64,000 bases of DNA from IMG/VR virus record IMGVR_UViG_3300042540_001015; one strand, 5' to 3'. Shown in pieces: positions 1 to 48,772 of the stretch. A model generated the notes under the pieces. The model ran no database searches. It saw only the letters and a list, made by a program, of their open reading frames with translations, and had not been told where the DNA came from. Source of the DNA: an uncultured virus (IMG/VR IMGVR_UViG_3300042540_001015). Lineage: Duplodnaviria; Heunggongvirae; Uroviricota; Caudoviricetes. The first letter of the stretch is position 1. Each line of letters opens with the position of its first letter. Made by a program: the position numbers and the translations under genes.

Positions 1-75
1 TAGCGATGTATCAAGTTTGATACACAAACTGGCGAAAAGTGACCCTTTCTGTACTGGAAACTCACCGAAAAACGT

Positions 76-300: not shown

Positions 301-398
301 CGCCACACGCCGCAGGAAGGGACGCGGCTGAATTAGGTAATGTCGCCGGAACTAGGTAGTAAATTAGGTAGGACGCTATTGAAATCAGAGAGGGAACA

Positions 399-608: not shown

Positions 609-625
609 AGCGAAGGGAGAGTCGG

Positions 626-904
626 ATGGGCTACTACAAAGAACTCGACATCCGCATTCGCAACGGCGGCGATGATGCCATTGCGGCCGTGAGCGAACTG
701 ATGCCGCGATGGATCGCTGTGGAGGAGCAACTGCCCCAGCGAGGCCAAATGGTCATCGTCGCGTTTCGTGGGCATTGGGGCGGCAAGAGGCAAGTCAGCG
801 CCGAGGTCTTCTGGATTGACGACCGTGGCGGATGGACAGGCTGCGATTCAATGAAGGACGGAAAGCCGACCCATTGGATGCCGCTACCCGAGCCGCCCGC
901 CTGA
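626..904 (+). CDS. DUF551-like protein
   Basis: WIAVEEQLP...PTHWMPLPEPP signature; GGGAG RBS. Confidence 0.75.
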   Translation: MGYYKELDIRIRNGGDDAIAAVSELMPRWIAVEEQLPQRGQMVIVAFRGHWGGKRQVSAEVFWIDDRGGWTGCDSMKDGKPTHWMPLPEPPA

Positions 905-1016
905 AGTGCGATACTGCGGCGAGAGACGGCCGCGACTGGACGTCCAGGGGCCCGGAGACTAGTAAAAATCCTCCGGGAACTTATGGGCTGACGCCTTGAA
1001 TTGCTAGGGTCGAAGT

Positions 1017-1367
1017 ATGGCCGACTACGCAATCCTGCCAAGTAATTTGAACATCCAGTTCGTTCGCGGGGACGAATTTGGGATGCTTTTGGACTTCGAC
1101 ACCTCGCTCGTCGGGTATGAGTTCCAGACCGTCATTTACGAAGTCGCTGGAGTCTCCGGCGGCGTCGTGACAGGCGGGGCTGTCCTGACATCGTTCACGA
1201 TCACCGAGGTCGACCTTTCCCTCGGGAAACTCAACCTGTCCCTGACAGAGACGCAGACGCAGTCGTTCAACCTCACGAAGTCCTATCGCTGGTACATGAG
1301 GTGGATCGCGCCGGGCGTCGTGACTAGAACTGTACTCTCCGGGTCCATCGCCGTCGGAGACCCGTGA
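1017..1367 (+). CDS. virion structural protein (BppU N-terminal-like beta domain)
   Basis: RGD...GKLNLSLT..QT..YRW...TVLSG pattern; first gene of the fibre cluster. Confidence 0.55.
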   Translation: MADYAILPSNLNIQFVRGDEFGMLLDFDTSLVGYEFQTVIYEVAGVSGGVVTGGAVLTSFTITEVDLSLGKLNLSLTETQTQSFNLTKSYRWYMRWIAPGVVTRTVLSGSIAVGDP

Positions 1368-2509: not shown

Positions 2510-2512
2510 TCC

Positions 2513-3511
2513 ATGCCCACGAACATCGCCATTACTGGGGAAGTCTACGGCAAAACGACGATAGGAAAAGTCTTGGAGTCGGGCTCCACGGTCGTCTCGA
2601 ATGCCACAGCCAGCGGGAAAATCATTCGCGTCAACTCGCTCCTGGTGGCGAACACGACGGGCTCGTCGAACGCCGACCTGATTGCCGTCATTCGACGGGG
2701 CGGAGACGGCACGGCCGCGAGCATTTATTTCGACGGTGCCAGTTACCTAAGCATGGACACCAACGCCGGAATGTCTTTCTCGGGCAACTTCACGGTCGAG
2801 GCGTTCGTCTACCTGATCTCCAATGGCAACTGGGGCGGGATCATCGACTGCCGATCGAGCGGAGGTCAATCAAGTTGGGTCTTTGGAGTCAGGAATAACA
2901 GTTACCAACGGCTCTACTGGGTCGACGCCAGCAACTCCGAGCGAAACTCGGACGCCCCAATCTTCTTCAATCGATGGACTCACGTCGCAGTCGTGAAGAA
3001 CGGATCGTCGATCTACTTCTACATCGATGGCGTTCGAGACACGCTCGTTACGGCGTCTTCGGCGGCCGTGACTGCACAGGCGACTTCTCCTGTTGTTGGG
3101 AAAACGGCCGACAACTACTACTTCAACGGGTACATCGAAGAACTCCGCGTCAGCGACACGGCGAGGTATACGACATCGACGTTTACTGTCCCGTCCTCGC
3201 CGTTCGCAAACAATCACGCCAACTCGAAACTCCTTCTCCACGGAGACGGCGAGAACGGCTCGACGACTTTCACTGACAGCGTCACGTCACCCCATACGCT
3301 CACGAGGTTTGGAAACACGAGAATCTCCACCGCTCGCAGCGTGTTTGCCGGAGAGGAACGCCGAATCGCCAACGCGATCTCCGTGCCCACTGGGGCGACT
3401 CTCTGCCTCACCGACAAACCCATCTACCTCGAAGAGGGAGACAGTCTTGTGTGCCTCGCCAGCACGAACGAGAGACTTGAGTACACCTGCTCCTACGAGG
3501 AGATCGGGTAA
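2513..3511 (+). CDS. LamG/concanavalin A-like lectin domain virion protein
   Basis: FTVEAFVY...WTHVAVVK...FYIDG...FNGYIEELRVS...ARY LamG_3 pattern. Confidence 0.85.
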   Translation: MPTNIAITGEVYGKTTIGKVLESGSTVVSNATASGKIIRVNSLLVANTTGSSNADLIAVIRRGGDGTAASIYFDGASYLSMDTNAGMSFSGNFTVEAFVYLISNGNWGGIIDCRSSGGQSSWVFGVRNNSYQRLYWVDASNSERNSDAPIFFNRWTHVAVVKNGSSIYFYIDGVRDTLVTASSAAVTAQATSPVVGKTADNYYFNGYIEELRVSDTARYTTSTFTVPSSPFANNHANSKLLLHGDGENGSTTFTDSVTSPHTLTRFGNTRISTARSVFAGEERRIANAISVPTGATLCLTDKPIYLEEGDSLVCLASTNERLEYTCSYEEIG

Positions 3512-6500
3512 ATGATTCGCGGCAGGGTTGGCGGGCGGATTGGGAATCGTGACGCCTCGCAGCCGAGTACGTCCGTGGCGAACGGCACTTGGACTCTTCA
3601 GGAGGCCTACGACGCTCTTCGGCGGGGCTCGTGGCCGATCTCTCGCGACGGCGGGTTCTCGGTCGCCAAGCCCCGCTCGATAAATGCCTCGTGCCCGCTC
3701 GCGGCGAACTTCTCTGCGCCCGTCCCCTTCAGCGGGGACCTGGGCTCGGGTCGCTCTAGCGGATGGGCCGACCCGATGAAGTTCGTGTGGGAGAAGAGCC
3801 TCTCGAACTCAAACTTTCCGAGCACGGGTAATCCGTGGCTTTCAGAGAACTTCGAGGCGAACAACCTTTGCTACTACTATAACAGCGGGTATTACTGCAA
3901 CCCGCTGAACCCTTCTGCCATCTACGCCACTGGCATTTCGCCGTCGCCGTTCGTGAAGGTCGAGTACGACTACACGGCATCAAGCGACCCGCTTTTTTCC
4001 CAGGTGACACTGTTCTCGAATTTCAACAACGGTTGCTTCGACCGCAGCAACTCGAAGAGAACGGCTTACATCAGGCGAGGCGGCTCTCTCACAACAGCCC
4101 GCTACAGGAACGGCACACGCAGTTTTACAAACGGCACCGTCTCCTGGTACGGAGGCCTGGCGATCTCCGGAAACTTCTGCATTGAGGGCTGGTTCTGGTT
4201 CAACGACTCAACGGACAAGCGGCCGCTGTTCTCGCTTGGCACAGTGTCTCCGATTGGAAAGTATTTTCAACTTTCTCTCAACGCCAACAGGATCGAGATC
4301 GAGCGATTCGGACAACAGCCGATCGTGCTCATGTCGAATGTCGTTGACGTTCAGTCGTGGACCCACATCGCCCTCTGCCGCAGCGGAAGCACGGTGCGGC
4401 TGTATGTAGACGGAATTGAGTCGGGCTCGACGACTGACTCGGACATTTTCGGAGACTCTCTCCTGGCCGGGAATGTCCAGGTTTACGCGAAAAGCGAAGA
4501 CTTCGTCGACGAGTTCCGAATAACTATCGCGTCTCGATACTCAGGTAATTTCACTCCTTCGAGCGGAAGCCTTGAGCCCGCAGCGTGCAACAGGCCCAAG
4601 GTCGTCGTTTCCGGGGCGGGGACTCCGATCGCAAACGATACGTTCCACCCGAGGGCAACGGGTGACGCAGGCTGGGACGAAAAGCAGTTCTTCTCCAACG
4701 ACAAGAATGATTGCTGCGTGTTCTGGGACTCGACTCGCGGTGTCTGGGTGATCTCCTACGGATCGAGCAGCGGACCTGCCGGAGACAGGAACTTTGCCTA
4801 TACAGGCAGCAGCATCTACCAAGACATTTTCATCAACTCCGGAACGTGGCTATACGCAAGCGACGGGAGTTGCTGGGCTCCTGTCACTGAGTCGGAGAAG
4901 TTCTACAACATTCCCTCCCAGTCTCTTTCGCTGACGTCGCTCGGGTTCTCGGACAACGAGACCTTCTACAGGCTTCGTGGAGTGAGCGGATTTCTGGATG
5001 CTGCGAGCAGTCCAGCAACTCTCACGGTCGAGCCGATCGCTGTGGCTTTCACTCAAGAGCCGACCGATCAGTTCGCCGCGAGCGGGTCTGCGACCTTCAC
5101 GGCTACCGTGAAGGCGACTGGGCAGTTCTCTGGCTCTGAGTACACAGGATTCTTGTATCAATGGCAGAAGAGGCCGCCGGGATCGACTGGGGCGTGGGAG
5201 AACATCGACGGGGCAACGAACGCCTCGGCACTGATTTCGGGCGTTTCCCCGTTGGCCGACAACGGCGCACAGTTCCGCCTTCGAGCCGCACCTAATTGCG
5301 AACAGTCTACGACGGTCTTTAGCAGGACTGCGATCCTCTATGTTGGTGCCCCAACGGCACCTCAGAACCTTGTCGGCATCCCCGGAGACTCTCAGGTCGG
5401 CCTCTCGTGGTCGGCCCCTTCCTCATCGGGGAACACGGCCGTCTTCGATTACGTCGTCCAATACTCGTCCAATGGCGGGGCGACCTGGACGACTTTTTCT
5501 GACGGGACAGGCACCACAACCTCAGCGACAGTCACCGGGCTCACGAACGGCACTGGATACATCTTCCGGGTCGCGGCCGTGAACAGCATCGGCTCCGGGC
5601 CGTTCTGCACGCCGACTCCGAGACTCGTCCCGGCAGCGGCCGGGACTGACCCGTACTTTTCTTACGTCTCCTTCGTCTCCAACTTCGAGGGAGAGAACAA
5701 CTCGACTGTCTTCGAGGACCAGTCACTCGCAGCGAGGACTGTGACTCGATTCGGAGACGCGAAGATTTCGACGGTTGAGAGCAAGTGGGGCTCGGCGGCC
5801 TACTTCGACGGCACAGGCGACTACCTGAGCGTCAGCGACCCGCTCGCGTTCAGGATCGGCAATCAGGACTTCACGGTCGAGGCTTGGGTTTATCCGACGA
5901 CTACTTCGGGTGGAGAAAAACCTGTCGTCACCACGGCGGACCCGGCAGACTATTCGGGATTTTTTGTAGGCATATCTCCTTCAGAGTGGTCGTGGAAACT
6001 TGGAGCGACGTCCTGGTCGGCAAGCGGCACTCCAATTAATGTCGCTGGGGATGGCTGGTATCACATCGCCCTGTCTCGATCCGGGGGCAATGTTCGCTTT
6101 TATGTGAACGGAACCGTTCGCCAGACTTCGGCAAACTCCACAAATGTCGCGAACTCGAACGAACTTCTTCGCATTGGTGGCCGGACTGTTGGAAGTCAGT
6201 ATTTCCAGGGATACATCGGCGGCCTTCGCGTTACGAAAGGCGTCGACAGGTATCCACTCGGGACGACTTTCACTGTCCCGTCAGCCCCCTTCCCAGTCTC
6301 TGTAGTCGGGGCGACTCCGCCCGATGCCCCGACTCTCGTCACCGCGACTGCCGGGACTCGGCAGGCCGTCGTGTCGTGGACTGCCCCGAATAACAACGGC
6401 TCCGGGATCAAGGATTATTTGATCCAATACAGCAGCAACGGCGGCACGACCTGGACAAACTTAACAGACAGCGTGAGCAAGTCGACAACTGCAACTGTCA

Positions 6501-7795
6501 CCGGACTCGCGGACGACACTGGATATGTCTTTAGGGTAGCGGCCGTGAACTACATCGGCACTGGCCCATACAGCACAGCCAGTTCGCCCGCGTCCACGAA
6601 CGCGTTGCCCGGGGCTCCGACAGGAGTATCGGGGACCCCGGGGAATGGCGAAGTCGCCCTGTCGTGGGCTGCCCCGGCCTCGAACGGAGGGGCGAGCATC
6701 ACCGACTATGTCGTGCAGTACAGTAGCAACTCGGGTTCAACCTGGACGACATTCTCCGATGGAACATCCGCAACGCTCTCGACCACTGTCTCGGGGCTCT
6801 CGAATGGAACTGGGTATCTGTTCCGTGTCGCGGCTGTGACGTCCGTTGGAACTGGCTCGTACAGCACTGCCAGTTCTTCGATCTCGCCAACTGGCACAGT
6901 TCCAAATGCGCCCACGACTCTCAACGGGACGCCAGGGGACACGCAAGTCTCGCTGACGTGGGCGGCCCCGGCAAACAACGGAGGCTCTTCGATCTCCGAT
7001 TACGTCGTCCAGTACAGTAGCAACTCTGGTTCGACCTGGACGACATTCAGCGATGGAACATCTTCGGTGACGGCGGCGACTGTGACCGGCCTCACAAATG
7101 GAACCGCCTACATCTTCCGCGTCGCGGCAACGAACTCGCAGGGTGCGGGTGCGTACAGCACAGCCAGTTCCTCGATCACGCCAAACTTGTTCACACCGAT
7201 GGCTATCCTGCTCACGTCCGGGACGAGTTACACGATTCCGGCCGGGGCGACGAGCATGAAGGCGTGGGCTGTCAGCGGAGCGACTCCGTATAGGGCTGGC
7301 GGAGTCTCGTACAAGACGTGGTCAGCAAGCGGAGGCACGACTGTCTCGTATTCGCTTGGGGCCTACTCCCCCGAGTTCGCGGAGAACACCCCGTGCGAAA
7401 TCACTTACGACGGATACACGATCTCGGCTGACTCTGAGTCGCCTTACTTCACTGGTGGCGATGGCGGGGCAGAGGGCGGAGAAACAATTTTCGTTTCCGC
7501 TGGTGCCCAAGTTCACGGGGGCGCGATTGGCGGGAACTCAGCGTCGCTGGCGTCTTGCGGAAGAAGGCCAGCAACGGATGTAAGTGGCTTGCTGGCGGCT
7601 GTTGCCCTGGCTGGCGAAAAGACGACTGAAGACTGCGCCGCGTCGGCTGCTTTCGGCAGCGGCTGCTTCGAGGACTACTACGACCCGACTCTCAGCAAGG
7701 ACTCCGGCATCGGCGGCGCAAACTATCGAGGAAGCGGATTCTTTGACCTTGGAGGCCCGGTCGGCGGCCCGGCCGTCGTCCTCTACTTCACATGA
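3512..7795 (+). CDS. large fibre/adhesin: 2 LamG domains, an Ig-like domain and 4 fibronectin type III repeats
   Basis: two LamG motifs; four P.AP...V.L.W.AP...DY..QYSSN.G.TW...Y.FRVAA FN3 units. Confidence 0.85.
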   Translation: MIRGRVGGRIGNRDASQPSTSVANGTWTLQEAYDALRRGSWPISRDGGFSVAKPRSINASCPLAANFSAPVPFSGDLGSGRSSGWADPMKFVWEKSLSNSNFPSTGNPWLSENFEANNLCYYYNSGYYCNPLNPSAIYATGISPSPFVKVEYDYTASSDPLFSQVTLFSNFNNGCFDRSNSKRTAYIRRGGSLTTARYRNGTRSFTNGTVSWYGGLAISGNFCIEGWFWFNDSTDKRPLFSLGTVSPIGKYFQLSLNANRIEIERFGQQPIVLMSNVVDVQSWTHIALCRSGSTVRLYVDGIESGSTTDSDIFGDSLLAGNVQVYAKSEDFVDEFRITIASRYSGNFTPSSGSLEPAACNRPKVVVSGAGTPIANDTFHPRATGDAGWDEKQFFSNDKNDCCVFWDSTRGVWVISYGSSSGPAGDRNFAYTGSSIYQDIFINSGTWLYASDGSCWAPVTESEKFYNIPSQSLSLTSLGFSDNETFYRLRGVSGFLDAASSPATLTVEPIAVAFTQEPTDQFAASGSATFTATVKATGQFSGSEYTGFLYQWQKRPPGSTGAWENIDGATNASALISGVSPLADNGAQFRLRAAPNCEQSTTVFSRTAILYVGAPTAPQNLVGIPGDSQVGLSWSAPSSSGNTAVFDYVVQYSSNGGATWTTFSDGTGTTTSATVTGLTNGTGYIFRVAAVNSIGSGPFCTPTPRLVPAAAGTDPYFSYVSFVSNFEGENNSTVFEDQSLAARTVTRFGDAKISTVESKWGSAAYFDGTGDYLSVSDPLAFRIGNQDFTVEAWVYPTTTSGGEKPVVTTADPADYSGFFVGISPSEWSWKLGATSWSASGTPINVAGDGWYHIALSRSGGNVRFYVNGTVRQTSANSTNVANSNELLRIGGRTVGSQYFQGYIGGLRVTKGVDRYPLGTTFTVPSAPFPVSVVGATPPDAPTLVTATAGTRQAVVSWTAPNNNGSGIKDYLIQYSSNGGTTWTNLTDSVSKSTTATVTGLADDTGYVFRVAAVNYIGTGPYSTASSPASTNALPGAPTGVSGTPGNGEVALSWAAPASNGGASITDYVVQYSSNSGSTWTTFSDGTSATLSTTVSGLSNGTGYLFRVAAVTSVGTGSYSTASSSISPTGTVPNAPTTLNGTPGDTQVSLTWAAPANNGGSSISDYVVQYSSNSGSTWTTFSDGTSSVTAATVTGLTNGTAYIFRVAATNSQGAGAYSTASSSITPNLFTPMAILLTSGTSYTIPAGATSMKAWAVSGATPYRAGGVSYKTWSASGGTTVSYSLGAYSPEFAENTPCEITYDGYTISADSESPYFTGGDGGAEGGETIFVSAGAQVHGGAIGGNSASLASCGRRPATDVSGLLAAVALAGEKTTEDCAASAAFGSGCFEDYYDPTLSKDSGIGGANYRGSGFFDLGGPVGGPAVVLYFT

Positions 7796-8265
7796 TCATC
7801 CTAAAAATGCCAAACGGCAGGTATTTCCTGCCGATAAAGAGAAGCGGAAGCCGCTGCATCGCAAGGGCTGCGATGAAGTCGTTCTACCCAGAGATCGAGA
7901 TCGGCGACGCACACCCCGCAGTCGTGTTTCCAAGCCGAGAAAGGCATGACGGCTCTCAAGAAGGCGTCGCCGTGCTCGTGAGAAATCCAATCGAGCGATT
8001 TCGATCTGCAATCGCGTACATGAAACTGCCTTTTGATTCTCAAGTCGTAACTCCTTCGCCTGGGTTTGTCCCCAGGGGAGATTTTCGGTATTTCAAGTTT
8101 GAAACTCAGTTGCAGGCCTGCGCCGACTGGCTGGGCATCACTGAGCCGCTCGTGCCTGAGTCGGAGCCTCTTGAGAAGCCTGAACTGAGCGAGTATCAGG
8201 AAGGGCTGATGCGAGGTATTTACAGGGAAGAACTCGAACTCTGGGAGTCTCTTGGAGATGCCTGA
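7792..8265 (+). CDS. sulfotransferase-family-like protein
   Basis: IKRSGSR (5'-PSB-like) and VRNPIERFRSA (3'-PB-like) motifs, C-terminal Y.E...LW. Confidence 0.55.
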   Translation: MIILKMPNGRYFLPIKRSGSRCIARAAMKSFYPEIEIGDAHPAVVFPSRERHDGSQEGVAVLVRNPIERFRSAIAYMKLPFDSQVVTPSPGFVPRGDFRYFKFETQLQACADWLGITEPLVPESEPLEKPELSEYQEGLMRGIYREELELWESLGDA

Positions 8266-8557
8266 GCGTTTCAAGTTTTTTTCCCCCAAGGGCAAGGCCA
8301 GGAAGAAGAGACTCGGGCCATCCTTCTCAGTCACTTATGGGGGAAGGAAATACTGGGAAGCCACCAGGAAGAGAATCCTGGTGAGGGACAATTGGCAATG
8401 CAGGCAGTGTGGGAGGGTTTGTGCAGATAGGGGAGAGGCGCAAGTTGACCACATCCAGAGAAAGTCTGAGGGGGGAGATGACTCGGATTCCAACCTCCAG
8501 GTGCTCTGCCTCCTGTGTCATGGGAGGAAAAGCCGGAATGAGCAATTGTATGGATAA
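8258..8557 (+). CDS. HNH endonuclease (terminase-associated, HK97 gp74-like)
   Basis: RD..QCRQCG...VDHI.....GG.D...NLQVLCLLCH..K; lies upstream of terS. Confidence 0.9.
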   Translation: MPERFKFFSPKGKARKKRLGPSFSVTYGGRKYWEATRKRILVRDNWQCRQCGRVCADRGEAQVDHIQRKSEGGDDSDSNLQVLCLLCHGRKSRNEQLYG

Positions 8558-8689
8558 GAGGGCCTCTGGCTTGCGATATGAAGCCATTTCAGGCATTCAG
8601 GCTGTCTCCATACCATTTGGTCATAAGGGGCTTTATGGGGCCTTCCAGGAGGCCGGGTTTTTCTGGTTCAAAAACAAACTCCCCGGAAG

Positions 8690-9200
8690 TTCTGCACTAA
8701 GTGCTTGTCTGCCTTGCACTTAGATGCTGGCCTGAACCAAATTTTCCAAATTTTCCCCCTATAGGGAGCCCAAGGTCATCCCCAAAATCTCATTTTTTAA
8801 AGTTCAAAGGTTCAACCCCTACTTAAGTCCAATGAAATCAATCACTTAAGTATGAACTTCAAAGTGAACTTCTACTTTTCTACAAGGTTCAAGAAGTTCA
8901 TATCAAATACCCTATTTTCGGGTCAGAGAGATTTTTCAGTCTTGTCTTGTACCCCCCCTATATAGGGAATGGAAGTTTTGCCCAGGCGGGGGATAGGCCG
9001 GGTGGAGTCCCAGAAAGCCCTGCTCACAAAAAGTGGGAAATTCCCACCAGAGCGAAAAGTGCTGTTTTTCCCGGGAAAACAGCCCCACCCCGGGGGAGTG
9101 TGCTCGATTTTTACCCCCTCGAACGGGGTGGGCCAGCCGGGGGCTTCCGTGCGCGGCCGCGAAATTTTGACCCAGGGCTTTCTTGGGGGTCGACTTCGAT
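8690..9200. other. AT-rich non-coding packaging (cos)/origin-like region
   Basis: six A[AG]GTTCA repeats in both orientations (8800-8900), ACTTAAGT palindromes at 8821 and 8844, IHF consensus at 8836-8848; lies between HNH and terS. Confidence 0.55.
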
Positions 9201-9219
9201 TTCGGGCAAGATCGATTGC

Positions 9220-9696
9220 ATGGGCAGGCCACCAGTTCCTTCATCGATCAAGATTCTCCGAGGCGATCCCGGCAAGCGGGGCGTCAATCACCTGGAGCCT
9301 GTGCCGCCCCCGGCCGACATGACTCCGCCTCTCGGGCTCGAAGGTCTCGCCCTGGAGAAGTGGAACGAGATGACGGCCCTCTTCTCGGCGATGGGGGTCT
9401 TCACCCAGGCCGATCGCCACACACTCCAGCGTTACTGCTTGATGTGGGAGCAGTGGTTCGGATTCGAGAAGCACTGCCGCGAGAACGGTTCAACTCAACT
9501 CACCCAAACCGGATACAGCCAAGTCACTGCGGAGGCGACTCTCGCGAGGGCTCTCAGGAAAGAACTCCTGGAGATCGAGCGACAGTTCGGCATGACTCCG
9601 GCCGCCCGGTCCTCGATGAAAGTTTCCGGTGCCCCTGCCACCCAAAACCCTCTTGCCGCGTTTGCCCAAAGCAGAAGCGGTCAAGCAGGGGCTTAA
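9220..9696 (+). CDS. terS: terminase small subunit (P27 family)
   Basis: MGRPPVP...LRGDPGKR...FGMTPAARS signature; ATG at 9220. Confidence 0.9.
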   Translation: MGRPPVPSSIKILRGDPGKRGVNHLEPVPPPADMTPPLGLEGLALEKWNEMTALFSAMGVFTQADRHTLQRYCLMWEQWFGFEKHCRENGSTQLTQTGYSQVTAEATLARALRKELLEIERQFGMTPAARSSMKVSGAPATQNPLAAFAQSRSGQAGA

Positions 9697-11304
9697 ATAC
9701 TACTTCGACGAAGGCAAGGCGGCCCACGCCGTCCGCTTCTTCGAGGAGTTTCTGACGCACTCGAAGGGCCAGTTCGCTGGCAAGCCATTTACGCTCCTGC
9801 CCTGGCAGAAGCACGACATTATCGAAGAACTCTTCGGGTGGATGCGAGTCGAGAGCGACACGAGAAAGTATAGAGTCGGGTACATCGAGGTGCCTAAAAA
9901 AAATGGTGCCTTGGCCCCTGCGGCTGGTTGCCGTGGGGGCCAAGGCATCATCGAGGAAAATCAACCCTCCTTTCCGGCATAGGCCTCTACACGATGGTCG
10001 CCGACGGCGAAGCCTCGGCTGAGTGCTTCGGCTGTGCCACCTCACGCGAGCAGGCGGGCATCGTCTACAAGCAGATGAAGGAACTCGTCGAGTCGAGTCC
10101 CTATCTCTCCGAGATGCTGGAGATCGTGGACTCGCGGAAAACGATCGCCTACATCCCGACTCACTCTTTCTGGAAAGTCATTTCGAGCGACGCAGGCCGC
10201 CAGGAAGGCCTCAACATCCACTCGCTCTGCTACGACGAGATTCACTCGGCCAAGGATCGGAAACTCTGGGACGCGGTTCGCTATGGCGGCATCTCCAGGT
10301 CGCAGAGCCTCATTCTCGCGATCACCACGGCGGGCGTAGACCGGAACTCGATCGGCTATGAGTTGCACGAACACGCGATGAAAGTCCGGCTCGACCCGAC
10401 CTATGACGAGCAGTTCTTCGCCTATGTCGCGGCGGCCGCCCCCGAGGACGACTACCGAGACCCCGAGGTCTGGAAGGCCGCGAATCCCTCCTGGGACGTG
10501 ACGATGGACGAGGAGAGTTTCCGTGCCGACGTTCGCGACGCCGAGCAGTCGAACAGCCGCCTCTCATCGTTTCTCCGGTACAGGCTCAATGTCTGGACAC
10601 AGGGAGACGGGAACCGATTCATCAAGTTGGATCAGTGGGAGGCCTGCAAGGGCGACTCCGGGATTCTCGGCTCCGATCGCATCTGGTACGCGGGGCTCGA
10701 CCTTGCCCAGACCTGGGACTGCAATGCCTTCGTGGCGGTCAGCAAGGCGAGCGATGACGTCTTCGATGTTCTCTGCCGGTTCTGGATTCCAGGCGATAAC
10801 GCCGGAGTCCGGTCTCAGAAGGACGGAGTGCCCTACACGACGTGGGCCAAGGAAGAGCGGAACGGGCTCTGCCTGACTCCCGGGAACACTTGCGACTACG
10901 CGTTCATCAAGCGGGACATCCTCCAGTTCTGCAAGGAGCGGACAGTCCGGATGATCGCGGTCGATCCCCATAACAGCCATTACCTCGTCCAACAACTTCA
11001 GGCGGATGGTTTAAATGTGCAAGGATTTTCACAAGGGTTCGCCAACATGAACCCTGGGACCCGCCTGACCGAGACGATTATTGCGCAGGGTCGCCTGCGA
11101 ACGAACAACAATCCCATCCTGAACTGGATGGCCGGAAACGCCACGACCAAAGAGAACGCCGAGGGCTACTGCAAAATTGTGAAGCCGAGCCCAACCAGCC
11201 CTCTGCGTGTCGACGGGATCGTGGCACTGGTCATGGCGATCGCCGTGGCGAGTGACGCCGAGAACGCCAAGCCAGCACCCGAGCCGGAGATTCTCATCCT
11301 ATGA
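9629..11304 (+). CDS. terL: terminase large subunit, interrupted by a 50-nt hairpin insert in the Walker A motif (two frames: 9629-9907 and 9958-11304)
   Basis: LLPWQ, VPKKNG|KST, YDEIH, ITTAG, GLDLA, RVDGIVA motifs; removing 50 nt restores VPKKNGKSTLLS. Confidence 0.9.
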
Positions 11305-14300
11305 GCGAGGAGCGAGTCCTGTCCGACTTTGTCTGGACACCGGAGCGGGGCGAGAACGACCCCGAGGTCCGGAGCATCTCCTGGAACAATCTCCTCCTTT
11401 CCGACGAGGTCTACAGCGGAAAGTTCCTTACCGCCGCCGAGATCAGAATCAATCCGGACACGGCCCTCCAGTCGACTACGTTTCTCGCGTGCTGCCGGAT
11501 TATCAGCGAAACTGTTTCTTCGCTCCCAATCCATGTCTATCGCCGACTGAAGAACGGACACGAGGAGATCGCGAGCGAGATTCCCCTCTACCACGTTCTG
11601 ACGTTCGCTCCCAATTCCTGGCAGACCAAGTTCGAGTTCTTCGAGCAGATGGTCATGGCACTGACGTGCTGGGGTAATTCCTATACCGAGGTCAACTCGG
11701 GCAAGTATGGAGCCGTCACTGAACTCAACAACTTGCATCCAAGCCGGATGCGAGTCGAGCGTCTGGAGAACGGGCGGCTCAAGTATTCATACAACGACCC
11801 CCAGACTGGTCGGCTGCTTCAGTACACACAAGACCAGATCATGCACGTCCGCTGGACGCCCGAGCCGGACGGCGTGAAGGGCATGGTCCCGGTCGAGGTG
11901 AGCCGCGACGCGATCGCGCTCTCCCGCGCCTGCGAAATCTACGCGAGCAAGTTCTGGGCGAACATGGGCAGGCCGGGAATTGTTTTGCAGACGGACGGTG
12001 CCCTCTCTGCCGAGACTGCGGAACGACTCCGCGACAATTGGGAGAGAATTCATAGGGGCGTCCAAAATGCTTATAAAACGGCAGTCCTCACGAATGGACT
12101 GAAAGTCGAATCATTCGGTGCGACGAATAATGATTCGCAATTTTTGGAGGTCAGGCGATTTCAGATCGAGGAAATCTGTCGAGTGTTCCGGTTGCCTCTG
12201 CATTTAGTGCAGGGGCAAGGCGGCGGCAGCCTGGAGATTCAAGGCCAGGAGTTCATCAACTACACGTTGATGCCCTGGCTGACTCGCATCGAGCAGTCGA
12301 TCAGCCGGTCGCTCATCTACGACGATGCGGTCTACTACGCGAAGTTCGACACTCGCGGCCTGCTTCGCGGAGACTCGAACAGCCGGGCAGCGTTCTATTC
12401 CACGATGCTGAACCTCGGAATTTTTTCGATCAACGAGTGCCGCAAGGCCGAAGGCCTGGGCCCGCTCGGCCCCGAGGCGGACAAGCATCTCGTGGCGATG
12501 AACCTCCAGCCTCTCGAAGAGGCTGTGAAGCCAAAGCCCGACCCCTCGATGATGCCAGGGTTCGGCTCGGGTGCTCCGCCGCAAGCCCCGGGCGGCCCGC
12601 CGAGTCTCTCGGAGGTGAAGACCGGCAAGCCTCCGATCGCGTCTCCGAAGGGAGAGGATTCGGCGAAGCGGTCGCTCAACCCACAAGACGCGGAACTCGA
12701 AGAGGCTCACGTCGAGATCGCCGAAGAAGAGGGCAAGTGGTCGAAGGAGTCGGCCCACTACATCGAGAAGAATCCGTTCGCCGCTCGTGGCATCAAGTGC
12801 CACAACTGCACACACTACGTCGAGGAGGGCGGGTGCAAGATCGTCTCCGGCCTGATCGGCGGCGAGGCGATCTGCAAACTGTGGGTGATCCCGCAGGAGA
12901 AGATCACTCAGGAGCCGGAGAGCCGGGCCTTCTGCCCGACCGGCCCAGGCGGCGGCGTGAAGAACGACTGCGGCAGCAAGGACGACGGCGGGCCTGCGGC
13001 TGAGTCTGGCGGCAAGAAGACAAACAAGGGCAACTTCCCTATTGCCAATTCCCTGCCAAAGGAAGTCCCAGCGGGGCACGAATCGCTTTCCGAGTACGTT
13101 GCCTTTAAGCCCGTTCCTGAAGGATCAGGCAACTCCGCCTTTGCTGTTCCGCCCTCTGACGAAGACCTTGCCCAAGCCTTGATTGGATCGAACAAGTCGA
13201 AGGGCACGAAGATCGGCAAGGCGAAGGAACTTCCTGAAGGAACCACGGTCGCTCTCAGAATTGACATTCCTGCCTTCAATCACTCGACGGACCGCATGGG
13301 CAAGAGCGTCTACGCGATCACGGTTCACGAGGATAAGGGCGGCAAGTCCAAAGACTTTGGGTCTCCGATCGGATACGAGCCGATGGCGAGGCTTTCGGGC
13401 CCCGTGAGGTTTGACTCAAAAGAGACCGAGGCGGTTCGCGTCGCCACCGGAGAGACAACGAAAACTCCGCTGGCGACCGTGAAGGGCAAGTACACGCAGG
13501 ACAGGACGATTCCTGCCGACATCGATACTTGGACTCCGGTTGGCTTCGACCCAAAGAAAGCCGCCTACTTCTACGACAAGAAAACCGGCGACGAGATTCT
13601 TTCCGGCACCGATGCCGTTAGCGTTGGCAACACAGTATTCACTCGCAACCCGCAGCGAGGGCCCAGAAACGCCAAGACCCACTACCGCTCTCTCGAAGAG
13701 ATGATGGCGGTTGATTCGTGGGGCCTGGAGTCGCGAGGCTTCTGCCCGACCGGCGAGGGCGGCGGCATCGACAACTCGTGCGGAGACGACGAGGGCGGCG
13801 GCGACTCGCCAGCCGCCCCCAAGGGCGATGGCGACTGCCCCAAGCCGTGCGGAGAAGTTGACGTTCACGCAGACAAGAACGACGACGGCGTGACTGACAC
13901 CGCGAGAGTCGGTGTTCCGGCGTTCGATGTTCCCCCGCCTCCCGGCATCCCGCGAATGCCTAACCTCGACGAGAAGTCTCGCGCCGCCGAAGAGGCGTTC
14001 GTCAAGCACTTCGAGAACGACCCCGAGGGCGTCTCTTCTCAGTTCCGCGATCTCGTGATGAAGCAGGGCGATCCGCCGACCTTCGGCACGGACGACGCCA
14101 AGTGCCTCACGGACGTGTGGTCAGAGTCGGACCCGGAGAAGCGAGCCGAGAACCGCGCGACCTTGAACACCGCCCTGCACCAGTGCGCAAACGCGGTCGC
14201 GAAGCGTGCATTCGTGCAGCACCTCGACACGCTCGAAAAGGGTGACTCGATCATGGTGACTGTCGGCGGCTGCGGTGCCGGGAAGGGCTTCGCTCTCAAG

Positions 14301-14789
14301 AACAACCCCGACGCCCTAGAGTTGAAGGGTCAAGCAAAGGCGATTTGGGATTCGGCCGGTGACCAGAACGCCACCGAGAATCCTTGGATTCAGGCCGAGG
14401 CCGAGAAGCGAGGCCTGAGCGTGACATACGTCTTCGTTCACGCCGATCCGAAGGTGCAGTGGGCCGACCCGAATCGCGGAGTCGTGAAGCGAGCAAGCGA
14501 CCCCAAGGACGGGAGAATGGTCGACGCGAAGGTCTTTGCCGACAGTTACGCGATCGGAGCAAAGAACCACCACGCGTTTCACCAAGCGAACAAAGACAAC
14601 TCCAACGCGAGGTTCGTGTTCCTCGACAACACCGGGAAGCCCAAGTCGATCCCTGGGGTTCCGAAGGAAGCACTCGATCTCAATCCGAGCGAACTCGCTT
14701 CGTTCGCCGAGAAGGAGGTTGAGAAGGCCCAGGCCCCGGAGCGGGTGAAGAAGGGTGCCCTTGCAGGGAGGCGAATCTGGAAGAAATGA
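11301..14789 (+). CDS. HK97-family portal protein with long C-terminal extension (HiPIP-like Cys domain, unknown domain, Zeta-toxin-like P-loop domain)
   Basis: N-terminal ~410 aa is portal (CCRIISETVSSLP, GNSY, EICRVFRLP, SINECR); extension has CHNC..C..C..W, two FCPTG tags and VGGCGAGKG. Confidence 0.9.
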   Translation: MSEERVLSDFVWTPERGENDPEVRSISWNNLLLSDEVYSGKFLTAAEIRINPDTALQSTTFLACCRIISETVSSLPIHVYRRLKNGHEEIASEIPLYHVLTFAPNSWQTKFEFFEQMVMALTCWGNSYTEVNSGKYGAVTELNNLHPSRMRVERLENGRLKYSYNDPQTGRLLQYTQDQIMHVRWTPEPDGVKGMVPVEVSRDAIALSRACEIYASKFWANMGRPGIVLQTDGALSAETAERLRDNWERIHRGVQNAYKTAVLTNGLKVESFGATNNDSQFLEVRRFQIEEICRVFRLPLHLVQGQGGGSLEIQGQEFINYTLMPWLTRIEQSISRSLIYDDAVYYAKFDTRGLLRGDSNSRAAFYSTMLNLGIFSINECRKAEGLGPLGPEADKHLVAMNLQPLEEAVKPKPDPSMMPGFGSGAPPQAPGGPPSLSEVKTGKPPIASPKGEDSAKRSLNPQDAELEEAHVEIAEEEGKWSKESAHYIEKNPFAARGIKCHNCTHYVEEGGCKIVSGLIGGEAICKLWVIPQEKITQEPESRAFCPTGPGGGVKNDCGSKDDGGPAAESGGKKTNKGNFPIANSLPKEVPAGHESLSEYVAFKPVPEGSGNSAFAVPPSDEDLAQALIGSNKSKGTKIGKAKELPEGTTVALRIDIPAFNHSTDRMGKSVYAITVHEDKGGKSKDFGSPIGYEPMARLSGPVRFDSKETEAVRVATGETTKTPLATVKGKYTQDRTIPADIDTWTPVGFDPKKAAYFYDKKTGDEILSGTDAVSVGNTVFTRNPQRGPRNAKTHYRSLEEMMAVDSWGLESRGFCPTGEGGGIDNSCGDDEGGGDSPAAPKGDGDCPKPCGEVDVHADKNDDGVTDTARVGVPAFDVPPPPGIPRMPNLDEKSRAAEEAFVKHFENDPEGVSSQFRDLVMKQGDPPTFGTDDAKCLTDVWSESDPEKRAENRATLNTALHQCANAVAKRAFVQHLDTLEKGDSIMVTVGGCGAGKGFALKNNPDALELKGQAKAIWDSAGDQNATENPWIQAEAEKRGLSVTYVFVHADPKVQWADPNRGVVKRASDPKDGRMVDAKVFADSYAIGAKNHHAFHQANKDNSNARFVFLDNTGKPKSIPGVPKEALDLNPSELASFAEKEVEKAQAPERVKKGALAGRRIWKK

Positions 14790-17700
14790 GTGCAGCGGAA
14801 AAAGCAACGCAACTGATCGAAGAGATCAAGGCTGCGGTCGGCATCTCGGAGTCCGACGATCTTGCCAAGTGGTGGGACGAAGACGCCGACCGTCTGAACA
14901 AGATGGCCGAAGAGGCCAAGAAGATCGCGGTGAAGGTCGAGAGCCGCGCCTTCTGCCCCACTGGCGAGGGCAACGGAATCGACAACTCATGCGGCTCCGG
15001 CGACAGGGGGCCGAAGATGGCCCCGGACAAAGACTCGGGCGGAGGGAGGGGCGGCGACGGCGACAACTTTGACGCCGTAGCCAACGAAATCTTGCGGTCC
15101 ATCGAGGCGACCGGCGGATACTCAGTCCATCCGATCACGGCCGAAAGCCCAACGACCGGATACATGGTCTCCACTGTCTCCCAGGCTGAGGAAAAGATTG
15201 CCGGTCTGGAGAACGTCACCGGAGACAGGATTCGCGAATACTTCGACAAGCACAAGGACTATCTTTCCGAGAACCCGCAGTTACACTTAGGGGGCTGGTT
15301 CAACCTCGAAGACGGGCTCGTCTATCTTGACCTGTCCGAGAGGTTTGAGGACGTCGACGACGCGATCGACAAGGCTGTCGAGAAGAACCAACTCGCAATC
15401 TGGGACCTGAACACCAAGTCAGAAATTCGCAAAGAGGATTACGATGGCAGAAGGACAAGAAAAAAAGAACCTCGTTCGGTTCGACTTCCCGCCCGGAGCG
15501 GGCCCGGACGAGATCGCGGCGGCGATCCGAAAGGCCGGATACAGGCTCCTGGCGGAGAAGGCGGCGAGGGAGGGGAAGCCCGCGCCTTCTGCGCCACCGG
15601 AGAAGGCGGCGGAGTAGACAACTCGTGCAGCGCGGGCGAATCATCGTCCGGCTCTGAGTGGGTTGCCTCCTCGACCGCCACGGCCACCGAGGAGCAAGAG
15701 CCCCAGTACACGGAGGCCGCCACCCCTCCATCGCGATCGGGCTGGAAGCGTTCCGAGGGGATGACGACCTGGAGTCGCGAGGAACTTCAGTCCTCGAAGA
15801 GCCCGTCGGAGACTGCCAAGAGTCTCGGCAGCCTCACGATCGTCGGAGGCAAGTGGGCGAGCGAGGCTCTCTCGAATGTTGGCGTCTCTCTCGACGACGT
15901 CATCGAGGCGTGCAGTTTCCCGGACGAGTCATCGAACGTCGTGATCGTGCCGGGCGAGCCCGCCCAGGCCTTCGACGTAATGTCTGGAAAAGATAACAAG
16001 GTCGGCTTCCTCGACGAGATCACGGTGACGACCGTGTCGACTCTCGAAGGATCAGACTCGCAGAACCACGCGATGACCTCGCTGCGGCGGCACGAGGACG
16101 GCACGCTCGAAATGAAACTCATCGGGCTCCTCGTTGCCGATGACGTGAAGCAGAACAATCGGATCGCTGCCGCCAGGAGAATTCTCGACCAAGTCCCGAG
16201 AATGATCGCCAACGCCGAGAGGCTGGGCGTCGACAAGGTTTCTCTCCGGGCGGCCGGTGACTCGGAGAACGAGAAGTATCAGGGCTACAAGATTTGGCCT
16301 CGCATCGGGTTTGACGGGGCGATCCCCAGGAAGTTGGTGACGAGCAAGTACACGCTGATGAAGGGCGTGTTCAACTCTTACGGCGACCGCATCCCTGACT
16401 CGATCCTCTCCCCTCGCGCCAAGCAGGAGAAGGCCAGCGGCAAGTTGACGGTCCAGGCTCTCTACGAGACGAAAGAGGGCCAGCGGTGGTGGGAGAGAAA
16501 CGGCGGCGATATGCCCATGTCTCTCGACATCAAGGACAAAGAGAGTCCTGGCATGAAGGCCTTCGAGAAGTCGCGGGCCAGGATCGGCAACCGGAGCCTG
16601 TCGGAGTTCCTCCTCTCCGAAAGTCGCAGCCTGAATCTTTTCTGGCCTGCGTGGCTGGAGAGGCGTGCGTACTGCCCAACCGGCGAAGGGAATGGAATAG
16701 ACAACTCATGCAGTAGCAGCGAAGGCGGCGCAGCGTCGTCCGCAATCGCCAGTGCTGTTCAGTCCCCCGAGAAGTCCTCGTCGCCAGCGGGGCCGCTCAA
16801 GTGGACATCCGGCGACCCGACAGGCGACATCACTTCTCGCGTGATGGCGGCCCCGCCGACCGTGAGGAGTGCTGACGGGAGGACGATCGAATCTACCTCT
16901 ATCCCGGACGCTCATATCTATCCGTTCGCCGGGCGTCAGTGGGTCTCGACGATCGACGCTGGCGCGTACCTGTCATCGATGCAAGACCAAGTTCGCGGCG
17001 GCGTAATTAACACCGCGACGGGCCGGGGGGAACTGTCACGCGAGAGCCTCGACTACATCACGACGGCAATCGCTGACCAGGGAATCACTGCGGCCAATCG
17101 CGGAATCGTTCCGCTCTTCTACTCGCCCGAAGAACTTGACCGGCAGTTGCAGGAGTTCTCGTCGCTCATTCCGCAGGTTCGCGGCGGACGAATGAAAGAC
17201 GGAACGCTCATCGAACAGGAGGACGCGGAGCACCTGTTCAGGGTTGTGCAGGCCCTCACGAGCCCCAACGCAACACCGTTTGCGAATATGCAGCGGACGG
17301 ACTCGCTCTTGCGAAAGTTCTTTGAGGGAGACGGAAGGATCACGACAGGAGATTCCCTCGGCGTCACCGGCCCAGGCATTCGCAAGTCGCTTCAGCGATT
17401 CCAGGCGATCGTCGACACGCTCGGAAGGCGAACTGGCGGGAGAGTCGACACGGCGGCCGGGCTGGCTGCGGCTCGTCAAATGCTCCAGCACCAGATGCTC
17501 CCGGCGAAAGAAATTGACAAATTCTTTGCCGACTTCAAGTCCGATAAGGACTCGAAGGACGCGTGGAAGCCCGGGAATTATCTCGTGGGTGAGGTCGTCC
17601 CGGTGTTCTCTACGTTTGGCCCCAAGGTCGGGCCGTTCTACGAGAACAACCAGGGCAACCTCGACCCGCTAACGGCTGATGTGTGGTTTACGAGAACCTG

Positions 17701-48750: not shown

Positions 48751-48772
48751 GGCGAGTTACAATCGCAATGCC

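Follow-up and report, generated by a model that had tools for sequence, protein, structure and literature searches.

A covarying hairpin at the Walker A motif of phage terL genes, probably skipped by ribosomal bypassing and possibly part of a mobile cassette

The only large terminase gene (terL) of an uncultured lake phage is interrupted within its Walker A motif by a 50-nt gap that, judging from sequence comparison, is probably skipped by translating ribosomes in an event of programmed bypassing. This gap, at positions 9908–9957 of the 64,000-nt stretch of DNA analyzed here (the window), is real, conserved, structured on the sense strand and flanked by matched codons, and in half of its variants it is untranslatable. 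More tentatively, the gap and its borders may together be a bypass cassette of ~80 nt that is complete in itself and moves laterally, and in which the ribosome would hop by way of a hairpin shortcut without a stop codon, a Shine-Dalgarno (SD) element, a dedicated nascent peptide or a linked endonuclease.

The upstream part of terL, in the frame of ORF 9629..9982, ends in GTG CCT AAA AAA AAT GGT (VPKKNG, with GGT at 9905–9907), and the downstream part, in the frame of ORF 9928..11304, begins with GGA AAA TCA ACC CTC CTT (GKSTLL, with GGA at 9955–9957). The downstream frame is –1 relative to the upstream frame and the two Gly codons lie 50 nt apart, as described in the original prediction, which had also correctly placed an A8 run at 9896–9903 and followed frame 1 to 9982. 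Frame 1 ends at the TAG at 9980–9982, giving a 0-frame product of 117 aa; over 9898–11304 the –1 frame stays open. With the gap counted as in T4 gene 60, from the first base past the take-off codon to the landing codon inclusive, the features of the locus are as follows.

9629..9907, plus strand: 5′ part of terL, ending ...YIEVPKKNG (93 codons counted from GTG 9629, the putative start)
9887..9892, plus strand: GAGGTG, an SD-like hexamer (Glu-Val codons) upstream of the A-run, of putative role
9896..9903, plus strand: A8 run (AAA AAA AAT, Lys-Lys-Asn)
9903..9951, plus strand: RNA hairpin with arms 9903–9924 and 9930–9951 (22 bp, 3 G-U) and loop TGGTT at 9925–9929
9905..9907, plus strand: GGT (Gly), proposed as take-off codon, at the foot of the stem’s 5′ arm
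9908..9957, plus strand: 50-nt coding gap, probably untranslated, whose flanks abut on one Gly in uninterrupted relatives
9952..9954, plus strand: CGA, a 3-nt tail between stem and landing codon, unpaired in the RNA fold
9955..9957, plus strand: proposed landing codon GGA (Gly)
9958..11304, plus strand: 3′ part of terL, from KSTLL... through the ATPase and nuclease domains (Pfam) to the stop codon

In Pfam comparisons the C part matches TerL_ATPase profile positions 33–175 (E 1.2e-17) and TerL_nuclease (E 1.7e-31), and residues 58–93 of the N part match TerL_ATPase positions 1–33 weakly (E 0.034, below the cut-off). A natural uninterrupted relative of 550 aa (L022) is 81% identical to the N part over its residues 12–104; the N part aligns up to Gly104 of this protein and the C part starts at the same Gly104. 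Nine insert-free relatives have a continuous VPKKNGKST. The two gene halves thus meet on a single Gly in uninterrupted relatives, and removal of the gap is exact.

Folding of 9885–9975 as RNA gave an uninterrupted 22-bp stem with a minimum free energy of –50.6 kcal/mol (z = –7.0; 0 of 200 shuffles as stable), and an inverted-repeat scan returned the same arms, each 22 nt long, 86% complementary by Watson-Crick pairing and separated by a loop of 5 nt, so that the originally predicted stem with its three G-U pairs is borne out by both methods. It is by far the longest hairpin in the window, where the next longest has 15 bp, and a search of the window for further copies of the arm with up to 3 mismatches returned only the hairpin’s own two arms. 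The minus-strand fold is weaker (–44.3 kcal/mol, with internal loops), the G-U pairs becoming A-C mismatches on that strand. In minus-strand orientation a U8 comes after the hairpin, which makes it terminator-like and offers a possible side explanation for the A-run; a minus-strand scan for the terminator consensus did not flag the hairpin with its U8.

The cassette is widespread. At the identical terL site it is present in 53 IMG/VR contigs comprising 37 distinct variants, whose TerLs are 38–100% identical to that of the window, across many samples and years. A pattern for the hairpin core had 43 matches in IMG/VR, all at the Walker A site of terL, and a pattern built on the flanks alone had 46 of its 47 matches there. 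Scans of genomes and metagenomes added one MAG contig (L042) and three metagenome contigs. The window holds one copy, and an identical 17-kb IMG/VR record was used for its phage. Logan contigs from three other lake-water runs (X2, X3 and X5) cover 9500–10074 or beyond with no gaps, and a contig from a fourth run (X7) ends at 9915, within the hairpin. An assembly artefact, which the original prediction had named as a possible refutation, is therefore excluded by contigs from three independent lake metagenomes that cross the hairpin without indels. A search for a cultured carrier found none, the best GenBank phage matches to the C part being below 38% identity, and a literature search covering the main texts of papers found none on a terL hairpin cassette.

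Across the 37 variants the stems span 17–22 bp and are G+C-rich, with helix energies of –35 to –48 kcal/mol. In the covariation analysis 91.8% of cells were paired, 8 of the 22 pairs had changed on both sides, and none of 500 shuffles reached the observed score, a positive outcome for the proposal that related phages should carry covarying hairpin inserts at this site. Tandem U-G and G-U pairs are the commonest state at two stem pairs, and the plus strand is more stable than the minus strand in 36 of the 37 variants; the G-U pairs and the plus-strand bias together indicate that RNA rather than DNA is the selected structure. The hairpin is a structure of the sense-strand RNA. Selection also acts on the surrounding gene: both terL halves are intact in all 38 loci checked and show dN/dS of 0.05–0.22 at dS of 0.44–2.5, indicating purifying selection, and terL is the sole TerL_ATPase locus both in the window and in three carrier genomes that are 99–100% complete.

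Gap length varies in a manner incompatible with decoding in a fixed frame. Gaps of 46, 47, 48, 49, 50 and 51 nt occur in 3, 13, 7, 3, 7 and 4 variants, respectively, occupying all three classes modulo 3 (20, 11 and 6 variants). The sole frame that could connect the two halves is blocked by stops in 20 of the 37 variants and is open, as the –1 frame, in the window’s own copy. One variant and its copies (L008) have a TGA immediately before the landing codon. The conserved covarying stem, the variation modulo 3, the blocked frames and the purifying selection together imply, for the family as a whole, that the gap is untranslated and skipped exactly, supporting the class of explanation originally put forward, namely recoding or precise RNA excision. 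Synthesis of TerL as two separate polypeptides was considered and rejected, as variants with TGA before the landing codon leave no start codon before GKST.

The codons bordering the gap are matched to differing degrees. The codons for take-off and landing match exactly in 22 variants and form same-tRNA wobble pairs in six more (together 28 of 37, the three Asn/Asn cases described below included); eight pairs, including the GGT/GGA of the window, differ at the third base beyond standard wobble, and one (L016) differs at the first base (GGC/TGC). The 22 identical pairs are weaker evidence than the count implies, since the variants share ancestry and GGC accounts for 51% of the Gly codons in window genes. 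Of the 37 variants, 34 have a 5′ Gly codon, which is retained despite poor pairing within the stem (column 20–63 is unpaired in 22 of the 34); the remaining three use the preceding Asn instead (AAT...AAC, Asn/Asn). Matched border codons could alternatively be target-site duplications left by an insertion. Downstream of the stem, the tails vary from 0 to 8 nt among 31 variants examined, and in 29 of these the landing codon is the first cognate-type triplet 3′ of the stem.

Upstream of the stem, the A8 run is kept in 33 of the 37 variants, as is GAGGTG, which also occurs in some insert-free alleles. The Lys-Lys-Asn codons of the A8 run are rare in the phage (AAA 0.22 and AAT 0.27, from the codon usage of seven window genes), and near-identical insert-free alleles write them as AAG AAR AAY.

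In the reading we favor, these elements would make up a small cassette acting in cis: the A8 run, the 17–22 bp hairpin with a Gly codon for take-off at its foot, the unpaired tail of 0–8 nt, and a Gly codon on which to land. With peptidyl-tRNA-Gly paired to GGU 9905–9907, a ribosome would encounter the very stable hairpin directly 3′ of its P site; the peptidyl-tRNA would release GGU, the hairpin would be passed undecoded, and the peptidyl-tRNA would re-pair at the first GG-triplet 3′ of the stem, GGA 9955–9957. Translation would then resume on AAA TCA ACC, giving a normal ...VPKKNGKSTLL... terminase with a junction predicted to read ...EVPKKNGKSTLL... We infer that it is the ribosome, and not an RNA-level step, that does the skipping, and likewise that the A-run contributes to it. 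Occurrence of the cassette in TerLs only 38–49% identical, with no linked gene and no RtcB in five carrier records, fits a signal that needs the ribosome alone.

Hallmarks of bypassing are found in part. The take-off codon GGT lies within the 5′ arm (9903–9924) of a stem-loop, as in gene-60-type bypassing. No stop directly follows the take-off codon in any of the 37 variants. In the window and four other variants take-off is followed by GCC. The remaining 32 variants have GTC, GCC, TCC or CGC at this codon when of the Gly class, and CTC, CCC or GTC when of the Asn class; zero-frame stops lie 6–8 codons past take-off, in the loop, in 19 of the 37. The two caveats attached to the original prediction hold for the window copy, namely that the codons are GGT/GGA, a pair that standard wobble does not assign to one tRNA, and that no stop follows take-off. 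The variant alignment shows no conserved SD-like motif 5–6 nt before the landing codon, and comparison of carriers with insert-free alleles over the 60 aa upstream revealed no carrier-specific nascent-peptide residue, which still allows a nascent-peptide signal that is part of the conserved sequence of TerL itself. With 0 tRNA genes, the window has no phage tRNA-Gly. Further points against bypassing are that the gap is almost wholly one very stable helix, an obstacle to an elongating ribosome, and that in the window GAGG, A AAA AAA and the hairpin, together with the open –1 frame, resemble a –1 frameshift cassette.

Removal of the hairpin at the RNA level, by cutting it as a mini-intron from the terL transcript, ligating the ends and translating the mended mRNA, with enzymes supplied by the host or the phage, is unlikely. 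It would account equally well for an untranslatable, exactly removable gap of variable length modulo 3 and for selection on sense-strand RNA structure, and it would be indifferent to imperfect codon pairs such as the GGU/GGA of the window and the GGC/TGC of L016. To our knowledge, no bacterial or phage system removes a plain hairpin from mRNA. Rfam 15 at gathering thresholds gave 0 family matches in the whole window, and no RNA ligase or RNA endonuclease families were found among the 43 window ORFs scanned with Pfam. RtcB is absent from five carrier records (three of them complete), although a host enzyme could still serve. Excision would moreover need identical enzymes in the hosts of phages with TerLs 38–49% identical, and it gives no reason for the redundant 5′ Gly in 34 of 37 variants or for the matched Asn pair in the other three. 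Bypassing is favored over excision by the pairing of like codons at the borders, Gly with Gly and, in one lineage, Asn with Asn.

A second alternative is that the hairpin is translated, once ribosomes have shifted to –1 on A AAA AAA or RNA polymerase has slipped on A8, and that the enlarged P-loop is tolerated. The product would be a TerL in which 18 residues, KWCLGPCGWLPWGPRHHR, replace Asn (17 extra residues), with a junction reading ...KKKWCLGPCGWLPWGPRHHRGKST... In dnaX-type –1 frameshift cassettes an SD-like element, A AAA AAG and a downstream stem-loop act together, and the spacer from slippery run to stem in –1 frameshifting is usually 5–9 nt. GAGG (9887–9890), the A-run and the strong 3′ hairpin follow in the same order here; the –1 frame is open throughout 9898–11304 in the window, and 20 of the 37 gaps are 2 modulo 3, with the frame open in 14 of these 20. 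The terL cassette differs from the dnaX type in its spacer of 0–1 nt, in the 17 variants with gaps of 0 or 1 modulo 3, which a –1 shift cannot connect and of which 13 nevertheless keep the A8 run, and in the TGA that blocks the –1 frame in 6 of the 20 variants with gaps of 2 modulo 3. Close relatives of the window carry such a TGA (L008 and its copies, one tail base from L010; L017–L020; L029). Open frames in about half of the variants are the chance level for a G+C-rich stretch of 16 codons, and the insertion would part strand 1 from the GKST of the Walker A loop. We regard translation of the hairpin as very unlikely, in line with the rejection of a simple –1 slip in the original prediction.

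Precise deletion of the inverted repeat from some replicating genomes, which would then supply TerL for the whole burst, has a slighter chance again. Slippage between the flanking GG repeats or a hairpin-specific enzyme might bring it about: inverted repeats flanked by short direct repeats are deletion hot spots, and precise evolutionary losses exist (L021, the L022 clade and L144, all nested among carriers). Genomes with the deletion would outcompete carriers, yet the cassette has persisted while synonymous sites became saturated (dS 0.44–2.5), and the G-U pairs and plus-strand bias speak for RNA and against DNA-level removal. Pfam scans of 43 window ORFs revealed no HUH or transposase families, and no deleted form or indel occurs in the contigs of the four runs, which is a weak argument since contigs drop rare variants. 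That terL is simply dead, as a pseudogene of a decaying prophage or in a phage reliant on another terminase, would suit an ORF that is broken under table 11 and yields in the 0 frame only a 117-aa fragment, and had been foreseen as a possible refutation, but the probability is negligible given halves intact in 38 of 38 loci at dN/dS of 0.05–0.22, the lack of any other terL in three complete genomes and the window, structural selection on the cassette itself and its presence in many samples and years.

We turn from the skipping of the gap to its distribution, which suggests lateral movement of the cassette from one terL gene to another, unrelated one, a behavior not foreseen by the original prediction. 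Near-identical hairpins occur in TerLs only ~40% identical, with gap identity of up to 98% between TerLs that are 44% identical. Conversely, alleles 95–99% identical differ in the presence or absence of the cassette and have a converted flank, suggesting that a short flanking patch is co-converted with it. The cassette thus behaves as an element that enters the same site of unrelated terL genes and is sometimes precisely lost, as in the insert-free alleles nested among carriers. Gap identity and TerL identity are uncorrelated (Spearman 0.06), a figure that is biased because distant carriers were found through a hairpin-based pattern; the argument for mobility rests instead on unbiased, protein-based samples. 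No linked endonuclease gene was found around the cassette. An HNH gene at 8252–8557, 1.4 kb upstream, was considered as a linked homing endonuclease; it also stands beside insert-free alleles, and two contigs, one with and one without the cassette, run collinear over 7.3 kb around terL, leading us to reject the linkage. A mobile unit of ~80 nt would comprise the A8 run, its own take-off codon, the hairpin, the tail, the landing codon and a short converted flank. Its persistence may come from occupying and disrupting a DNA site that is also targeted by inteins and homing endonucleases, or alternatively from throttling TerL synthesis.

Programmed bypassing, in the late-2024 view given in the available text of one source, comprised T4 gene 60 with its homologues and the mitochondria of Magnusiomyces, with one terminase case as a strong candidate (bioRxiv 10.1101/2024.12.09.627546). 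If bypassing of the gap is true, the terL cassette would be a third, independent and abundant natural system, offering 37 natural variants of another architecture (one long helix, no stop, no SD) with two alternative codon pairs, from which the essential features of bypassing could be asked; its small size also suits the cassette to direct reporter tests. Such a system would further mean that bypass cassettes can behave as selfish mobile DNA in bacterial viruses, and that the terminase P-loop serves inteins, short gaps and hairpin gaps alike as a place to land. As a practical matter, interrupted terL genes end up split or discarded by gene callers, which distorts estimates of phage completeness and terminase phylogenies.

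Among known systems, the closest in location is the candidate bypassing reported for Streptomyces phage phiHau3 and two prophages, in their large terminase (PMC10732093). As far as the available text of that paper describes it, the first phiHau3 insert lies in the same gene at practically the same site: the g6 query ends ...RLKGWG and g7 starts KDPLL..., placing the boundary at the Gly|Lys junction of Walker A, as in the terL cassette. The same argument is made in both cases, namely that a junction so highly conserved would hardly accept additional residues. The inserts differ, those of phiHau3 being 10 nt (7 nt in the prophages), led by a rare UUA and proposed to act as a tRNA-dependent switch, and those of the terL cassette being hairpins of 46–51 nt without an apparent rare leading codon (the gap in the window starts with GCC). 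The phiHau3 type was found in 3 of the 100 terminase genes considered there, with no sign, in the same available text, of a conserved mobile cassette (PMC10732093).

The byps of Magnusiomyces capitatus mitochondria are inserts of 27–55 nt that are skipped precisely in translation (bioRxiv 10.1101/2022.08.31.505936, as given in its available portion). Like the terL cassette, they are described as disrupting essential coding sequences and spreading as miniature G+C-cluster mobile elements, and the terL gaps of 46–51 nt are likewise short, G+C-rich, structured and apparently mobile inserts in coding sequence. By the same account, byps are mitochondrial, with 81 copies in 12 genes, whereas the terL cassette occurs once per genome and has only one target site. 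Byps also depend on an A-site sense codon without a tRNA, no such codon being evident in the terL cassette, and are AU-rich in their 3′ part, unlike the terL cassette.

Comparison with T4 gene 60 reveals both differences and likenesses. The terL cassette lies in another gene (at the terL Walker A motif) and is unrelated in sequence. The gene 60 gap, in the descriptions available to us, has a short stem-loop followed by an AU-rich stretch, in contrast to the one long G+C-rich helix and 0–8 nt tail of the terL gap. The terL cassette further differs in having no stop and no apparent rare codon after take-off, no conserved SD-like motif before landing and no linked homing-endonuclease gene such as mobA, and in 9 of its 37 codon pairs, including that of the window, not being same-tRNA pairs. 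In the gene 60 homologues of myovirus topoisomerase genes, the available text places the take-off codon in the stem-loop’s 5′ side, with matched pairs that fall on one or the other of two neighboring codons, Gly46 or Asp45 (bioRxiv 10.1101/2022.08.31.505936). On that description, both systems have an untranslated gap of ~50 nt at an invariant residue of an essential phage gene, with a take-off codon in the 5′ side of a covarying stem-loop; in both, some lineages use the neighboring codon (Asp45 in gene 60, Asn in the terL cassette), and in both the element appears mobile, with repeated insertion at one site.

The Walker A motif of the large terminase gene (terL) is encoded in two pieces. The codons GTG CCT AAA AAA AAT GGT (V P K K N G) lie in the frame of ORF 9629..9982, and the codons GGA AAA TCA ACC CTC CTT (G K S T L L) in that of ORF 9928..11304, shifted by -1 against the first frame. 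The sequence read confirmed the original prediction of a split motif spaced by 50 nt from Gly codon to Gly codon, and RNA folding reproduced its 22-bp stem, uninterrupted and with three G-U pairs:

8252-8557, HNH gene, from the gene order of the window
9903-9924 / 9930-9951, + strand, inverted repeat arms with a 5-nt loop between them
9905-9907, + strand, 5′ Gly codon GGT, sequence read
9955-9957, + strand, 3′ Gly codon GGA, sequence read

The minimum free energy of 9885-9975 is -50.6 kcal/mol (z = -7.0; 0 of 200 shuffles equally stable), and the complementary strand folds more weakly (-44.3 kcal/mol, with internal loops). No other hairpin longer than 15 bp was found in a scan of the whole window. 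The 3′ part of terL contains TerL_ATPase (profile positions 33–175) and TerL_nuclease domains, while the 5′ part weakly matches TerL_ATPase positions 1–33 (E 0.034). Alignment with L022, a naturally uninterrupted related TerL (550 aa), runs up to Gly104 for the 5′ part (81% identity) and from Gly104 onward for the 3′ part (73%); therefore, one Gly codon and everything between the two is surplus.

The phage is an HK97-like temperate phage (61% G+C) with a single terL locus, and its gene order is HNH, terS (small terminase subunit) just 5′ of terL, terL, portal, prohead protease, capsid, and an integrase-like gene. Unusually long ORFs encode a 1427-aa fn3/Laminin_G protein (3512-7795), a 1162-aa protein with the portal domain confined to its first 385 residues (11301-14789), proteins of 1884 and 1839 aa without Pfam match (14786-20440 and 31861-37380), and a 2400-aa protein with RCC1 repeats (38628-45830). 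The stretches 51593-52909 and 56038-58105 encode a fusion of a TROVE (Ro60-like) domain with a VWA domain and, nearby, an ATPase of the AAA_5 (MoxR-like) type and a DUF7192 protein; Rfam gave no Y-RNA-like partner. The plus-strand ORF 48970-49851, with a histone-deacetylase-family domain (E 5.6e-32), is overlapped by a longer minus-strand ORF (48757-50019) without Pfam match, and is probably the real gene of the pair. A 15-bp palindrome at 48252-48284, GAGTTTGGCCCCGGA ACG TCCGGGGCCAAATTT, is flanked on one side by the integrase-like gene (46861-47841, minus strand) and on the other by an ATG at ~48317 preceded by AGGAGG, and may be an operator or terminator; the core that it has in common with the terL hairpin (TTGGCCCC / GGGGCCAA) may be chance.

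The insert is no artefact. Independent assemblies of three other lake-water runs gave contigs that cover at least 9500-10074 without a break and have the identical hairpin and A8 run, with three substitutions downstream relative to the window; in a fourth run, the contig ends at 9915, within the hairpin. No gap-deleted form was seen in the contigs of these four runs, in which rare variants are hidden. (We call the untranslated stretch after the 5′ Gly codon, landing codon included, the gap, and the A8 run, both codons, hairpin and tail the cassette.) The original prediction pointed to relatives as a place to look for covarying hairpin inserts. A protein-based IMG/VR scan with the terL 3′ part gave 39 loci, 34 of them at least 67% identical; 25 of these have an insert at exactly the same site, and nine read VPKKNGKST uninterrupted. 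A DNA pattern on the hairpin core gave 43 stretches, all at this terL site and 21 on new contigs, and a flank-only pattern (A8-YGG, 41–51 free bases, GGN AAR TCN AC) gave 47: 46 are copies of this cassette, with six of them adding new contigs, and the remaining one is an AT-rich chance match without a hairpin. Altogether, the cassette was found on 53 IMG/VR contigs, on one MAG contig, L042, and on two other metagenome contigs, in terL genes whose 3′ parts encode protein 38–100% identical to that of the window.

The hairpins do covary. Across 37 distinct variants, 91.8% of stem-column cells are paired, vs. at most 52% when partners are slid by 1–3 columns, and 8 of 22 pairs show changes on both sides (40 cells), a score reached by 0 of 500 shuffles. 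U-G and G-U are the most frequent states at two adjacent stem positions and the plus strand is more stable in 36/37 variants, indicating structure selected on the sense RNA, as the prediction had read from the G-U deviations. Gap lengths of 46 (3 variants), 47 (13), 48 (7), 49 (3), 50 (7) and 51 nt (4) cover all three classes modulo 3. The sole frame able to connect the halves is stop-closed in 20/37 variants, and the zero frame has a stop inside the gap in 19/37, mostly in the loop. TGA stands immediately 5′ of the landing codon in L008 and its copies, which are closely related to the window and separated from L010 by a single base in the tail.

Both terL halves are intact in 38/38 loci examined, with pairwise dN/dS of 0.05–0.22 for both (dS 0.44–2.5), and three carrier genomes rated 99–100% complete have no TerL_ATPase locus other than the interrupted gene. 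With the gene under purifying-type selection and the insert unreadable in half of the variants, the insert must be skipped exactly, which supports the proposed choice between recoding and exact RNA removal. We infer that skipping probably occurs by ribosomal bypassing. Coding requires just one Gly codon, yet 34/37 variants keep a Gly codon at the base of the 5′ arm despite poor pairing (column 20-63 is unpaired in 22/34). The other three variants (L069, L070 and L079) have a matched Asn pair shifted by one codon, with AAT preceding the gap and AAC closing it. In 29 of the 31 variants inspected, no cognate-type triplet occurs between the stem and the landing codon; each of these features favors bypassing. 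So does the likeness to T4 gene 60 homologs, for which the accessible text of a preprint (bioRxiv 10.1101/2022.08.31.505936) describes inserts at Gly46 or Asp45 with matched codons in each case, the same kind of variation.

Excision of the hairpin from the terL transcript is an unlikely route: RtcB was not found in five carrier records, nor an RNA ligase family among 43 window ORFs scanned. Judged from its distribution, the cassette appears to function in phages with very different TerLs and with no linked gene, and together these observations fit a purely cis-acting ribosomal signal. Several points count against bypassing. Codon pairs are not same-tRNA in 9/37 variants, including the window (GGT/GGA) and one GGC/TGC; GGC makes up 51% of Gly codons in the window and the variants are related, both of which weaken the codon-match argument, and the matched border codons could be insertion duplications. 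The take-off codon is followed by an ordinary sense codon, never a stop (GCC in the window); both anticipated differences from gene 60, the GGT/GGA pair and the missing stop, hold. The variant alignment contains no SD-like motif before the landing codon, and the nascent peptide no carrier-specific residue. Gap helices have stabilities of -35 to -48 kcal/mol, and we know of no demonstration of a ribosome passing such a helix.

The A8 run forms three codons, AAA AAA AAT, that are rare in this phage (AAA 0.22, AAT 0.27). It is kept in 33/37 variants, and 13 of these belong to the 17 in which the length of the gap precludes a -1 connection; a frameshift site joining the frames is thus very unlikely, in line with the earlier disfavoring of a simple -1 slip. 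At these codons, insert-free alleles with 98% identity to carriers read AAG AAR AAY, indicating that the A-run belongs to the cassette; under bypassing, it might make the approach to take-off weakly pairing, unstructured or prone to sliding. A dead pseudogene is contradicted by the intact halves and low dN/dS. On the minus strand, 9903-9951 reads as a hairpin with U8 immediately after it, and so has the form of an intrinsic terminator that would act on antisense transcription; a terminator consensus scan left it unflagged because the G-U pairs become A-C mismatches there.

In the tree of the window's TerL family, carriers occur in both main clades and insert-free alleles form two groups, requiring at least two changes. 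Among 22 representative carriers, a set biased by distant members from the hairpin-pattern search, gap and TerL identities are uncorrelated (Spearman 0.06): L007 and L099 are 44% identical in TerL and 98% in the gap, while pairs with 68–83% TerL identity have gaps just 59–79% identical. Two unbiased protein-based samples carry more weight. Of 80 relatives of the L106-type TerL, 9 carry the cassette, 66 are contiguous, 2 have an apparent intein at that spot and 3 are truncated; among 79 relatives of the L098-type TerL (Asn class), the cassette is solely on the query's own contig, and alleles 95–97% identical lack it. L106-type contiguous alleles read ...EVPKKN-AKSTLLSCLSIW... and carriers 98–99% identical overall read ...EVPKKN-G[gap]GKSTLLSALSIW..., with recoded KKN codons and ~24 nt of altered downstream flank, which appear to be a short patch imported together with the hairpin. 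L144 is contiguous but has kept the flank imported downstream in carrier L137, and arose either by precise loss or by recombination. The near-identical alleles with and without the cassette, and the imported flank, suggest that the cassette moves, or is moved, by gene conversion. No linked endonuclease was found: a carrier and a non-carrier contig are collinear (90% identity over 7.3 kb) with no extra gene near terL, and the upstream HNH gene adjoins both allele types.

In the L106-type lineage, 65/66 contiguous alleles (L115-L120 and most of L123-L186) have Ala before the Walker A lysine (N-A-K-S-T), and all 9 hairpin alleles have Gly. In L145:250-440 and L148:250-440 (90–91% identical to L106-type), the contiguous Walker A is replaced by upstream sequence that ends in ...GMIPTHN immediately ahead of STLLSC. 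This sequence resembles the C terminus of an intein that would have inserted between GK and ST, within a few bases of the hairpin, in which case this one spot would host selfish inserts of three kinds.

Among known systems, T4 gene 60 bypassing is closest in mechanism, the byps of Magnusiomyces mitochondria in element type, and the first phiHau3 terminase insert in site, its flanks being given in the accessible text as ending ...KGWG and starting KDPLL... (PMC10732093). Compared with each of these, the terL cassette has a different sequence, architecture and target. Literature searches gave no published description of it, and the introduction of a December 2024 preprint, in its accessible part, names only these three (bioRxiv 10.1101/2024.12.09.627546). 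New here are the Asn/Asn class of matched codons, the tie of the A-run to the cassette irrespective of frame, and evidence for lateral movement of the cassette as a unit that has a converted flank and lacks a linked endonuclease.
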